In this document: positions 27,402-28,042 of the stretch, one piece after another
Numbering within the stretch: position 1 is the first letter of the stretch
How the letters are laid out: every line of letters begins with the position of its first letter
Origin: a virus
Taxonomy: Duplodnaviria; Heunggongvirae; Uroviricota; Caudoviricetes
Direction: 5' to 3' (one strand)
Length of the DNA stretch: 36,503 nt
Virus record (IMG/VR): IMGVR_UViG_2713896908_000012
Span: 1-36,503 of that record
Position numbers and translations under genes: made by a program
The notes under the pieces: generated by a model
The model's input: the letters and a program-made list of their open reading frames with translations, nothing else
What the model was told of the DNA's origin: nothing
Database searches by the model: none

Positions 27402-27425
27402 TGAAAACCTCCGATGACAATTTTA

Positions 27426-27486
27426 AACACACCTTGTGTTATATGGTCAAGCTGTTTTGTGTTTTATATAAATCACGAATCGTGAT
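27426..27486. promoter_or_regulatory. Divergent immunity control region with two 15-bp palindromic operator candidates
   Basis: AACACACCTTGTGTT (27426-27440) and ATCACGAATCGTGAT (27472-27486) between the divergent cro-like and repressor starts; AT-rich TATATA/TATAAA elements between them. Confidence 0.5.
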
Positions 27487-27497
27487 ACAAGGATGCA

Positions 27498-27917
27498 ATG
27501 GAAAAAGAAAACGAAAAAATTGCCGCTAGTAGGCTCAATGACAAAATTGCAATGCGTCTTAAAGAGCGCAGGCAGAAGCTCGGTTTATCTCAAGGAAAAC
27601 TTGCTGAAATCTGCGGATGGACGCAATCGCGTATAGGTAACTATGAGGCGGGCAGCAGAAATGTTGGAGTGCATGATGCTGTCGTATTGGGAAAGGCACT
27701 TGGCATATCTCCTCCTGAGCTCCTCTTTGGAGAACAGGAATCTTCTGAATTGTGGTTAAATGAATCCCAACGAAAACTTCTTGAGTTGTTTAACCAGCTA
27801 CCGGGCTCAGAACAACAACGAATGATTGAGCTATTTGAAGTCCGGCTAAAAGAAATCGATGAGTATGTAGAAAAATATTTGAGAGGCAGGCTTAAAGATA
27901 ATCCTCCACCGGAGTAA
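27498..27917 (+). CDS. Prophage repressor, DicA/RacR-like HTH protein lacking a LexA-type peptidase domain
   Basis: 139-aa ORF; HTH segment LGLSQGKLAEICGWTQSRIGNYEAG; C-terminal ...RKLLELFNQLPGSEQQRMIELFEVRLKE... resembles the DicA C-terminus as I recall it; AAGGA ribosome-binding site. Confidence 0.75.
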   Translation: MEKENEKIAASRLNDKIAMRLKERRQKLGLSQGKLAEICGWTQSRIGNYEAGSRNVGVHDAVVLGKALGISPPELLFGEQESSELWLNESQRKLLELFNQLPGSEQQRMIELFEVRLKEIDEYVEKYLRGRLKDNPPPE

Positions 27918-27947
27918 TGATCTTGATATCACAGTAATATGCCAATC

Positions 27948-27971
27948 AGCCCGCTATCAGCGGGCTTTTTT
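27948..27971 (+). terminator. Strong intrinsic terminator downstream of the repressor gene
   Basis: Perfect 8-bp stem AGCCCGCT/AGCGGGCT with 3-nt loop, followed by T6. Confidence 0.8.
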
Positions 27972-28000
27972 GTACCATCATCATATGACACCCACCACAA

Positions 28001-28042
28001 AACACATTTCGTGTTGACACACAAAAACATATTGTGTTTAAT
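28001..28042 (+). promoter_or_regulatory. Early-left operon promoter (TTGACA, 17 bp, TTTAAT) with overlapping palindromic operators
   Basis: -35 TTGACA at 28014-28019, 17-bp spacer, -10 TTTAAT at 28037-28042; palindromes AACACATTTCGTGTT (28001-28015) and AAACATATTGTGTTT (28025-28039) overlap the -35 and spacer. Confidence 0.6.

Follow-up and report, generated by a model that had tools for sequence, protein, structure and literature searches.

The lambda CI/Cro switch is built from divergent genes, adjacent operators that lie 23-24 bp apart in a -19/-42/-65 geometry, and a leaderless repressor mRNA. Other prophages of enteric bacteria use shorter repressors: RacR binds three inverted repeats in its intergenic region (PMC9638921), DicA acts at Oc and dicBp (PMC3441716), and for the class of short repressors induction by antirepressors is established (PMC3121763; Rem/DicA in 10.1101/2023.04.14.536235). 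The Gifsy antirepressors are themselves LexA-controlled (PMC3121763), and an antirepressor may also be supplied in trans by a different prophage (PMC3121763). The locus described here is part of a 36,503-bp window, which is the whole stretch of DNA that was analysed. We read it as the immunity switch of a Rac-family lambdoid prophage, in which five 15-bp operators would be bound by a repressor and a Cro-like protein and derepression is likely to proceed via an antirepressor, and we assign this reading a probability of about 80%.

Prophage CP-933P from E. coli O157:H7 (PaaR2/YdaS/YdaT; PMC8630535, PMC9986795) resembles the window in several respects, namely a short repressor without a cleavage domain, a repressor gene that is divergent from a cro-like gene followed by ydaT, an intergenic region of ~97 bp with several evenly spaced palindromic operators, and a second promoter, PL, with related operators beyond the repressor operon (PMC8630535). 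The CP-933P operators, however, are 18-bp palindromes around GTTTAGTAA, whereas those in the window are 15-bp CAC-N5-GTG sites, and the CP-933P repressor gene is co-transcribed with the paaA2-parE2 toxin-antitoxin genes, whereas the window repressor gene is monocistronic and followed by a terminator. The CII analogue of the switch family, YdaT (140 aa, PF06254), is encoded at 26740..27162 on the minus strand. The junction between the cro-like stop and the ydaT start carries a probable YdaT operator, CTGATTTTCATGAATCAA (27152..27169; one mismatch to TTGATT-N6-AATCAA), in the same location as O_M of CP-933P YdaT at the ydaS/ydaT junction (PMC9986795). Rac from E. coli K-12 (RacR/YdaS/YdaT; PMC9638921, PMC5700373) shares the prophage family, the insertion site ttcA and the flanking genes ydaT, ydaV, ydaF, kilR and recET with the E. 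coli copies of the locus, and in a RacR-type phage two RacR-type sites at PL are positioned as in the window. RacR itself differs from the window repressor in size (158 aa), in sequence and in its operator, (T/A)TAGGC-N3-GCCTA(T/A). The window represents a heteroimmune variant.

The immunity repressor encoded at 27498..27917 on the plus strand comprises 139 aa and is identical to WP_000410105.1. As the original prediction had stated, a LexA-type cleavage domain is absent: HTH_3 (N-terminal, about residues 18-80) is the sole Pfam domain, no LexA/S24 peptidase domain is present, and at its C-terminus the protein has a short helical domain of the DicA/GtgR type. A single-sequence structure model of low confidence (mean pLDDT 64) shows nothing but helices after the linker. 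DicA can be aligned with the repressor from end to end (29% identity over 129 aa, E = 2e-15), and the GtgR C-terminal segment matches the repressor with 46% identity over 35 aa (E = 1.9e-4). Positions 4-131 of the 135 in the DicA model NCBIfam NF007257 are matched with 57.2 bits, which is below the curated cut-off of 101 bits; the protein is therefore a relative of DicA and not its orthologue. With a length in the ~130-160 aa range, an N-terminal XRE-type helix-turn-helix, no S24 domain and the C-terminal homology, the repressor by its sequence features belongs to the DicA/RacR/Gifsy (GfoR-GtgR) class of short repressors without an S24 cleavage domain. Divergent from it, at 27159..27401 on the minus strand, lies the cro-like gene, whose 80-aa product (HTH_3) is homologous to mEp213 Cro and carries the recognition-helix motif GWIQSRLANYE. 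The pattern GW..SR..NYE is common to both proteins, and a comparison of Cro-like proteins and repressors revealed GW, SR, NYE and R as invariant in the recognition helix.

The original prediction held that palindromes of the form (A/T)(A/T)CAC-N5-GTG(A/T)(A/T) occur twice between the cro-like and repressor starts and again at the -35 element of a promoter downstream of the repressor terminator, and exact matches bear this out. WWCACNNNNNGTGWW has exactly three matches in the 36,503-bp window, at 27426-27440 (AACACACCTTGTGTT), 27472-27486 (ATCACGAATCGTGAT) and 28001-28015 (AACACATTTCGTGTT), while 0.37 are expected and none of 100 shuffles reached three. All three copies are located inside the two control regions, OR and OL, the first two of them in the 96 bp that separate the start of the cro-like gene (27401, minus strand) from that of the repressor gene (27498). 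It might be argued that AT-rich intergenic DNA gives rise to such palindromes by chance, given that short palindromes are common and that the window holds 52 perfect 5-N5-5 palindromes, compared with about 36 expected. The 170 bp of OR plus OL, however, contain four of the 52 (P = 1e-4), and the motif is specific to OR and OL and conserved across genera with its arms under purifying selection, so that, as far as sequence can tell, we regard an accidental origin as extremely improbable.

A closer view of the sites completes the picture of five operators. O_R1 (AACAC-ACCTT-GTGTT, 27426..27440) is a perfect palindrome that occupies the spacer of PR, the leftward promoter, and reaches 2 nt into its -10 element; an equivalent site exists in all relatives compared, and one spacer base alone varies among the E. 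coli copies. O_R3 (ATCAC-GAATC-GTGAT, 27472..27486), likewise a perfect palindrome, is of a variant type (TCAC) and centred 19 bp upstream of the repressor ATG. In other DicA-type relatives the site at this position is variant too (TCAC, CCAC or a change in one arm), with its centre at -19 to -22. Between the two, the original prediction had named no site, and here its count of OR sites has to be extended: the sequence AAGCT-GTTTT-GTGTT (27449..27463, AAGCTGTTTTGTGTT) is a weak site, O_R2, with a single good half-site, which is exactly 23 bp from both O_R1 and O_R3 and overlaps the PR -35 element by 2 nt, just as O_L2 is placed relative to PL. A full site occupies this position in mEp213, and the arms are invariant in six E. 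coli copies. The stretch 27449-27463 is thus probably a third, degenerate site, and OR would consist of three sites and not two. O_L2 (AACAC-ATTTC-GTGTT, 28001..28015) is again a perfect palindrome and overlaps the PL -35 hexamer TTGACA (28014-28019) by 2 nt; its junction with the promoter, GTGTTGAC, is also found in Chris1 and mEp213, and the E. coli copies vary in spacer bases only. For the spacer of PL, a site AAACA-N5-TGTTT had been proposed. This sequence is present (28025-28039) and the site is real, but its register is off by one base pair: position 28029 varies (A/C/G) in E. coli copies, which breaks that palindrome, whereas it belongs to the spacer of AAAAC-N5-GTGTT one base to the left. 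We therefore place O_L1 (AAAAC-ATATT-GTGTT, AAAACATATTGTGTT) at 28024..28038, where it has one mismatch to AACAC-N5-GTGTT, takes up the spacer of PL and reaches 2 nt into the -10 element; its arms are invariant and three spacer positions vary in the E. coli copies. The centres of adjacent operators are 23 bp apart, and at PR and PL the registration is identical, with one site overlapping the -35 element by 2 nt and one filling the spacer.

Putative PR (27422..27450, minus strand) was read directly from the sequence as TTGACC (27450-27445), a 17-bp spacer and TTTAAA (27427-27422), with TAAAAT (27425-27420) as an alternative -10 element. A TTGAC-17-TTTAAT/A arrangement also occurs in Chris1, and the cro-like gene, ydaT and the replication genes lie downstream. 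Putative PL (28014..28044, plus strand) combines TTGACA (28014-28019) with a 17-bp spacer and TTTAAT (28037-28042) or, alternatively, with TAATAA (28039-28044) after 19 bp. It precedes ydaG/ydaF-like genes, kil, recE, recT, xis and int, a gene order taken from an annotated E. coli copy, and its distance to a conserved leader is equal in phages of other immunity types. The description of PL as near-consensus needs a correction: 11 of 12 consensus positions are matched, but a consensus promoter scan called neither PR nor PL because TTTAAA and TTTAAT do not have an A at -11. The -10 elements of both promoters are atypical, and the alternative ones need 19-bp spacers. For the repressor gene, a candidate PRM -10 element, TACAAG (27486..27491, plus strand), lies 6 nt before the ATG. 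It is invariant in the E. coli copies, and its geometry is kept in relatives, which have TAAAAT, TAATAT or TAAAAA at the same place; if used, it would give rise to a leaderless repressor mRNA with O_R3, O_R2 and O_R1 at -19, -42 and -65. TATAAA (27467-27472) is disfavoured as the PRM -10 element as its second base is G in three of six E. coli copies. An intrinsic terminator (27948..27972, plus strand) with an 8-bp stem (27948-27966) including six GC pairs and a subsequent T run is located 3' of the repressor gene, and O_L2 is situated downstream of it. The leader after PL did not match any Rfam family at the gathering threshold, its single-sequence fold was no more stable than that of shuffled sequence (z = +1.2), RNAalifold yielded no useful covariation with eight or six homologues, and the leader was not similar to the HK022 immunity segment expected to contain PL/putL.

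The strongest arguments for function come from comparison. Nine loci with GW..SR..NYE helix-turn-helix repressors were collected, i.e., the window, Citrobacter phage Chris1, two Citrobacter genomes, Raoultella, Enterobacter, Aeromonas phage pAEv1818, record PP818812 and coliphage mEp213. In this set, whose members are not independent (the three Citrobacter copies are nearly identical), 33 of 40 occurrences of CAC-N5-GTG fall within the 240 bp of OR plus OL, and the operator core is found at matching promoter positions in about nine related loci. Conversely, two relatives (L005 and L012) that keep the C-terminal domain and have a different helix-turn-helix lack CAC-N5-GTG sites altogether, and in L005 other repeats are common to OR and OL. 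Six E. coli copies vary at none of 50 arm positions, but at 8 of 25 positions in the spacers (Fisher P = 6e-5) and at 15 of 95 elsewhere in the intergenic DNA (Fisher P = 1.4e-3). Arms that remain invariant while adjacent spacers mutate freely point to ongoing selection on the operators. Since the sites recur in relatives, disappear when the helix-turn-helix is swapped, are conserved in their arms and are accompanied by a recognition helix common to both proteins, we consider them functional. Very probably the palindromes are the DNA sites through which the repressor and its Cro-like partner act and the prophage is kept silent, and the lambda-like OR/OL logic that had been proposed for this region is supported by the comparison.

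Could the palindromes serve the Cro-like protein or another factor only, with the 139-aa repressor recognizing different DNA? The window and PP818812 share the CAC-N5-GTG core and encode Cro-like proteins of 100% identity, and the natural helix-turn-helix swaps do not separate binding by Cro from binding by the repressor, as Cro was probably swapped along with the repressor N-terminus. Nevertheless, this explanation is highly improbable: the recognition-helix motif is present in the repressor as well as in Cro; despite the constant Cro, the outer arms read AACAC in the window and TTCAC/CTCAC in PP818812, the repressors being 62% identical; the cI gene of mEp213, whose product has an N-terminal domain 58% identical to that of the window repressor, adjoins a textbook tripartite OR/OL of the same motif; and no other repeated motif common to OR and OL was found in the window. 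That the sites are relics in a cryptic prophage, whose switch is inoperative owing to dead promoters or a non-functional repressor, is also improbable. In its favour, elements of the Rac family are frequently defective, the -10 hexamers depart from the canonical sequence, O_R2 is degenerate, and the best-matching E. coli copy (L001) resides in a prophage with several pseudogenes. The gene set of the window, on the other hand, appears complete for structural, lysis, replication, recombination and integration functions, distant strains of E. coli, one of them O157:H7, carry an identical repressor protein, and, as described above, the operator arms stay invariant while the spacers mutate.

What the sequence shows directly are the sites, with their spacing, registration and conservation, and the relationships of the proteins; from these we infer protein binding, the sequence in which the sites fill, where transcription begins and how induction occurs, and a switch of the following kind emerges. 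The five sites with the consensus (A/T)(A/T)CAC-N5-GTG(A/T)(A/T) would act as operators for the dimeric 139-aa repressor and for the 80-aa Cro-like protein with the same recognition helix. At PR, which would drive the leftward transcription of the cro-like gene, ydaT and the replication genes, one site lies over the -35 element and one over the spacer and the edge of the -10 element, and the layout is the same at PL, which would drive kil, recET, xis and int rightward. As bound repressor would cover the elements of PR and PL, both early operons would be shut by exclusion of RNA polymerase. The 23-bp spacing corresponds to about two helical turns, as in lambda, and may allow cooperative binding of neighbouring dimers. 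O_R3, the sequence variant, adjoins the repressor gene. With a repressor mRNA that begins at the ATG, the OR sites at -19, -42 and -65 would reproduce the lambda PRM geometry, in which the -42 site serves activation and the -19 site auto-repression or shut-off by Cro. As for a possible opposite operator preference of the two proteins, which would give bistability, the indirect indications visible in the sequence are the common recognition-helix motif and the systematically variant repressor-proximal site. Derepression would most likely be brought about by a small antirepressor protein and not by RecA-stimulated cleavage, given that the repressor has no S24 autocleavage domain and that its C-terminal domain has homologues in GtgR and DicA.

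With regard to induction, the original prediction had named a non-SOS or an antirepressor-based route. The latter is likely here by homology, whereas 'non-SOS' does not follow from the missing domain, as antirepressors of the Gifsy phages are themselves under LexA control. In the window, no match to the LexA box CTGT-N8-ACAG was found and a consensus-similarity LexA scan returned only a half-box (21745-21764), so that SOS control within the window is unsupported. Searches of the window with tblastn using Qin Rem, Gifsy-2 DinI and neighbouring small ORFs, including the candidate GftA beside dinI, gave no matches. An ORF of 70 aa at a rem-like position (21485-21697) was rejected as an antirepressor, being without similarity to Rem and assigned to a different PHROG. 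Induction might alternatively proceed without any antirepressor, through host proteolysis, temperature or H-NS effects or a stochastic take-over by Cro, which would make the element SOS-independent. Beyond the missing LexA box and the missing homologues of Rem, candidate GftA and DinI, this would agree with the temperature- and Cnu/H-NS-sensitive binding of DicA (PMC3441716) and with the spontaneous switching-on of dicBp without Rem (10.1101/2023.04.14.536235). We consider it possible, though on the unlikely side, because GtgR and DicA, to which the repressor is homologous in its C-terminal domain, are both inactivated by small antirepressors (PMC3121763; 10.1101/2023.04.14.536235), and because antirepressors diverge quickly and may act in trans (PMC3121763), which makes their absence from the window weak evidence.

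Among the systems with short repressors, Qin (PMC3441716; 10.1101/2023.04.14.536235) is similar to the window in the whole-length alignment of DicA with the repressor including the C-terminal LLELFNxLPxSEQ motif, in its divergent genes, in a repressed promoter downstream of the repressor gene with an operator in the spacer (dicBp) and in the family of the first downstream gene (DUF1391). It differs in the DicA operator, TTAGY-N4-RCTAA, in that the window Cro-like protein is unrelated to DicC, and in Rem, which has no homologue in the window. The repressors GfoR, GtgR and GfhR of Gifsy-1, -2 and -3 (PMC3121763) are likewise short (about 136 aa) and non-cleaved, and the early-left operon includes recE/recT as in the window. 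Their N-terminal DNA-binding domains, however, are not detectably similar to that of the window repressor, and the window has neither a dinI-linked LexA box nor a homologue of the Gifsy-2 ORF beside dinI (candidate GftA).

The DNA-binding half of the switch has its counterpart in mEp213 (JQ182733). The window exhibits the features of mEp213-type immunity specificity, a GW..SR..NYE helix-turn-helix and CAC-N5-GTG operators, the cI N-terminal domain is similar (58% identity, see above) and the Cro proteins are homologous. OR and OL of mEp213 comprise three CAC-N5-GTG sites each at 22-24 bp spacing, and its PL junction, GTGTTGACA, is as in the window. In contrast, mEp213 cI has 213 aa and a C-terminal domain of the LexA/S24 type, where the window repressor has a short C-terminus of the DicA/Gifsy type, and mEp213 differs further in having an N gene and a nut-type leader. 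The switch module may be a natural chimera, in which a lambda-type DNA-binding domain with operators common to SOS-cleavable mEp213-like cI has been joined to a C-terminal domain of the Gifsy/DicA type; we put this forward as a tentative and rather unlikely idea. If true, a non-inducible cross-immunity against mEp213-type phages would be possible, and induction of the element itself could need an undescribed antirepressor or one provided in trans by another prophage. The literature search retrieved nothing relevant on WP_000410105.1 or on the mEp213 operators, and no description of the binding-site sequence of the window was found. The analysis supplies a concrete operator consensus for an immunity type that about 3% of complete E. 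coli genomes carry (O157, O145, O111 and O103 strains among them), a corrected site register and testable promoter maps. Furthermore, nature combines a single DNA-binding specificity with C-terminal domains of either kind, cleavable or non-cleavable, which bears on the wiring of induction and cross-immunity in strains with several prophages.

In comparison with lambda, the operators are shorter (15 versus 17 bp) and unrelated in sequence, OL has two sites and not three, the central OR site is weak, the distance between OR and OL is about 575 bp as opposed to 2.3 kb, and the S24 domain and therefore RecA-mediated cleavage are lacking. The typical CI/Cro arrangement is otherwise present: the repressor and cro genes are divergent and separated by a short gap, the palindromes are evenly spaced with a second cluster at the putative PL, two operators cover each of PR and PL, and the repressor-proximal site is variant as in lambda. 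As a whole, the locus is an ordinary switch in the style of lambda; its family is known, and it embodies no new regulatory principle.

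The window is a largely complete lambdoid prophage of the Rac family with genes for tail, capsid, terminase, lysis, the Q-region, replication and immunity, as well as recE/recT, xis and int. In its immunity region, the gene for an 80-aa Cro-like protein (HTH_3; 27159-27401, minus strand), followed by ydaT (PF06254; 26740-27162, minus strand), lies opposite to that for a 139-aa repressor (HTH_3; 27498-27917, plus strand), which is followed by a terminator (27948-27966, then a T run, plus strand) and the early-left operon (28219 onward, plus strand: DUF1391/ydaF-like, kil, racC, recE, recT, ralR, xis, int). 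A further feature, recognized by Rfam at a score above the gathering threshold, is RalA (34769-34947, minus strand), the sRNA antitoxin of the type I toxin-antitoxin system RalR/RalA. The immunity region is present at 95-98.5% identity in about 160-180 of 5,426 complete E. coli genomes, including O157:H7, O145, O111 and O103 strains; one example copy among these carriers resides in the ttcA (Rac) site. The top matches in this genome set are only about 98.4-98.5% identical over this region, so that the source strain is either missing from the set or a member of a species closely related to E. coli.

The original prediction that palindromes of the form WWCAC-N5-GTGWW occur twice between the cro-like and repressor starts and once more at the -35 element of the early-left promoter was borne out: there are exactly three matches in 36.5 kb (27426, 27472 and 28001), compared with 0.37 expected by chance, and none of 100 shuffles reached this number. 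A mismatch-tolerant scan with AACAC-N5-GTGTT adds 28024-28038 (AAAACATATTGTGTT, one mismatch), which is the previously proposed AAACA-N5-TGTTT site moved by one base. While this site stands, its register had to be corrected, because AAAAC-N5-GTGTT is spaced 23 bp from the site at 28001 and because positions 28029-28031, polymorphic in other E. coli copies, leave AAAAC...GTGTT intact and break AAACA...TGTTT, which was rejected. The two exact matches in the divergent region are 46 bp apart, and precisely at their midpoint lies 27449-27463 (AAGCTGTTTTGTGTT) with one intact half-site. An unbiased search for 15-mers common to both control regions recovered the same sites and nothing else. We refer to these predicted operators as O_R1 (27426-27440), O_R2 (27449-27463, weak), O_R3 (27472-27486), O_L2 (28001-28015) and O_L1 (28024-28038).

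The putative promoters PR (leftward) and PL (rightward) are identically built when each is read on its own strand, with -35 elements TTGACC (27450-27445) and TTGACA (28014-28019), 17-bp spacers, and -10 elements TTTAAA (27427-27422) and TTTAAT (28037-28042), respectively. O_R2 and O_L2 overlap the -35 elements by 2 nt; after a 4-nt gap, O_R1 and O_L1 occupy the spacers and overlap the -10 elements by 2 nt. A consensus promoter scan called neither PR nor PL, since the -10 hexamers have no A at -11. Alternative -10 elements, TAAAAT for PR and TAATAA for PL, lie two bases onward with 19-bp spacers. Both patterns are seen in relatives (TTGACA-18-TAATAT in Aeromonas phage pAEv1818, TTGACT-19-TATAAT in an Enterobacter prophage), so PR and PL are very likely real promoters, with the exact -10 elements as candidates.

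Several lines of evidence speak for operator function. The five sites together have 50 arm positions, all of them invariant among six E. coli copies, whereas variation is seen at 8 of 25 central spacer positions (Fisher P = 6e-5) and at 15 of the 95 remaining intergenic positions (P = 1.4e-3); fixed arms around free centres are the signature left by a helix-turn-helix protein that contacts DNA as a dimer. Repressors and Cro-like proteins of the group have invariant G-W, S-R, N-Y-E and R residues in and after the recognition helix, and because these residues are in common, both proteins should recognise one set of sites, as repressor and Cro do in phages 434 and P22. A further line is a comparison with Citrobacter phage Chris1, two Citrobacter genomes, Raoultella, Enterobacter, pAEv1818, PP818812 and coliphage mEp213, which share 57-66% identity with the window in the repressor or its N-terminal domain. 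CAC-N5-GTG sites occur at equal promoter positions in these loci, although the flanking intergenic DNA has diverged, and in the nine loci including the window, not all of which are independent, the core occurs 40 times, with 33 copies inside OR plus OL, that is, within 5% of the sequence. In mEp213, the window's motif takes on the textbook tripartite arrangement at both OR (2431, 2454, 2478) and OL (3226, 3248, 3272).

Klebsiella phage Kp4865-4 and a Phytobacter genome encode repressors with a C-terminal domain nearly identical to that of the window's group (RLKEIDEYVEKYLRGR) and an unrelated helix-turn-helix. Neither has CAC-N5-GTG sites in OR or OL, and OR and OL of Kp4865-4 share other repeats (AAAGCAT.GGTTTAT, GCAAA-N2-TTTGC). 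This natural specificity swap demonstrates that the DNA-binding domain is exchanged as a module while the C-terminal domain stays constant. PP818812 encodes a Cro-like protein 100% identical to that of the window and a repressor only 62% identical; the core is kept in both, whereas the outer arm bases are TTCAC/CTCAC in PP818812 and AACAC in the window. As they differ while the Cro-like protein is identical, the outer bases would seem to follow the repressor. The record itself (PP818812.1, 'Actinobacillus phage vB_Apl-pPE4') carries E. coli Rac-like DNA that is 97-99% identical to the window and in which, besides the Cro-like protein, ydaT and the PL leader also match, unlike the repressor. 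Its mosaic structure is clear-cut, one joint falling at the start codon of cro and the other directly behind the PL -10 element, and Actinobacillus as its stated host looks doubtful.

The repressor is identical to RefSeq WP_000410105.1. Pfam detects helix-turn-helix families only, and PDB sequence matches cover only this part. Over its whole length it aligns with DicA (29% identity, E = 2e-15), including a common C-terminal LLELFNxLPxSEQ motif; the NCBIfam DicA model matches end to end with 57 bits, below the 101-bit cut-off, and the C-terminal segment matches Gifsy-2 GtgR (E = 1.9e-4). A low-confidence AlphaFold single-sequence model (pLDDT 64) has a helical helix-turn-helix domain, a disordered linker (residues 81-88, pLDDT below 50) and two C-terminal helices, and is devoid of a beta-rich S24 fold. 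The Pfam, DicA, GtgR and model evidence places the protein, as judged from sequence, among the short non-cleavable prophage repressors that Lemire et al. defined as a class, with DicA and RacR as members (PMC3121763), in agreement with the predicted lack of a LexA-type cleavage domain.

Without an S24 domain, RecA-stimulated self-cleavage is excluded. A non-SOS route, one of the two further proposed, cannot be derived from the lack of this domain, given that the Gifsy antirepressors are LexA-controlled. Since the repressor is homologous to GtgR and DicA, our best guess is that an antirepressor relieves repression: GftA releases GtgR from DNA (PMC3121763), and Rem antagonises DicA (10.1101/2023.04.14.536235). 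The window lends this guess no direct support: it contains no LexA box and no homologues of Rem, DinI or the small Gifsy-2 ORF next to dinI, which served as candidate GftA. An antirepressor may have diverged, be absent, or be encoded by another prophage, and action in trans from another prophage has precedent (PMC3121763). A 70-aa ORF (21485-21697, minus strand; phrog_1813, function unassigned) lies just downstream of hok/sok, whose sok antisense RNA (22126-22278, minus strand) was found by Rfam above the gathering threshold. Ahead of this ORF stands half of a LexA-like box (TTCTGTGTATATATATTTTT, 21745-21764), and the ORF occupies the position matching that of rem in Qin; sequence similarity to Rem is absent, and it is an antirepressor candidate by position only.

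In the lysogen, repressor dimers would sit on O_R1 and O_L1 within the promoter spacers and on the -35-overlapping O_R2 and O_L2, probably cooperatively given the 23-bp spacing, and PR and PL would thereby be shut. The repressor-proximal O_R3 is a variant of another type (ATCAC), and the corresponding site differs from O_R1 in four of five other DicA-type relatives (CCAC in pAEv1818 and one further locus, L011; one arm changed in Chris1 and the two Citrobacter loci related to it). PP818812 has the TCAC type at both outer OR sites, and mEp213 has ACCAC at the repressor-proximal position. With a sequence type of its own, O_R3 would be suited to a separate task, namely auto-repression or preferential binding of Cro. 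Counted from the A of the repressor ATG, the OR centres lie at -65, -42 and -19; flanking sites in other DicA-type relatives are at -65 to -70 and -19 to -22, and the mEp213 centres at -66, -43 and -19 counted from the second ATG. Each locus has a -10-like hexamer 6-9 nt 5' of the ATG (TACAAG in the window; TAAAAT, TAATAT or TAAAAA elsewhere). This geometry fits a leaderless transcript from the candidate repressor promoter PRM, activated from the -42 site, the situation known for lambda cI. The same holds for PaaR2 (PMC8630535). TATAAA (27467-72) was not favoured as the PRM -10 element, its critical second base being polymorphic in E. coli copies.

Exactly at the junction of the cro-like stop and ydaT start lies CTGATTTTCATGAATCAA (27152-27169), a predicted operator with one mismatch to the YdaT operator TTGATT-N6-AATCAA that is probably bound by YdaT, a CII analogue; O_M of CP-933P is located at the same junction (PMC9986795). 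A second copy with two mismatches is found at the ydaT stop (26726-26743). Three exact AACGCT-N3-AGCGTT palindromes (0.11 expected) lie inside the ydaU-like replication gene at 26278-26292, 26485-26499 and 26678-26692, 207 and 193 bp apart. As the copies sit in different reading frames, they are a DNA-level rather than a protein repeat, and may be origin-related or bound by some protein. PL is followed by an untranslated leader of roughly 175 nt (28045-28218), which ends before the first early-left gene and is 75-83% conserved among temperate E. coli phages whose immunity types differ widely (RacR-type, DicC-linked and others), with the mosaic joint upstream of it, directly after the -10 element. 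Citrobacter, Klebsiella, Enterobacter and Aeromonas-phage relatives carry a shorter related leader (GGCAGGA..AGTAGCT..GGCATACGAA..GCAGCAGGT). The leader of the window is not followed by an N gene, has no Rfam match, shows no sign of covariation and is not similar to the HK022 immunity segment, in which PL/putL should lie; its role might be in regulation or antitermination.

The same architecture has been shown experimentally in the relatives CP-933P, RacR and DicA (PMC8630535, PMC9638921, PMC3441716). In CP-933P, the target of PaaR2 and YdaS is an OR of 97 bp, and PL/OL is present (PMC8630535); RacR has three operators of the form TAGGC-N3-GCCTA (PMC9638921), and sequence inspection of a RacR-type phage revealed the two-site PL layout of the window; DicA acts at Oc and at dicBp, where the operator is in the spacer (PMC3441716). 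We found no description of the CAC-N5-GTG operator consensus in the searchable literature. Specific to the window's switch are this consensus and a helix-turn-helix/operator set in common with mEp213 cI. The latter is SOS-cleavable, whereas the same set is combined here with a non-cleavable repressor, which amounts to domain shuffling between induction modes.
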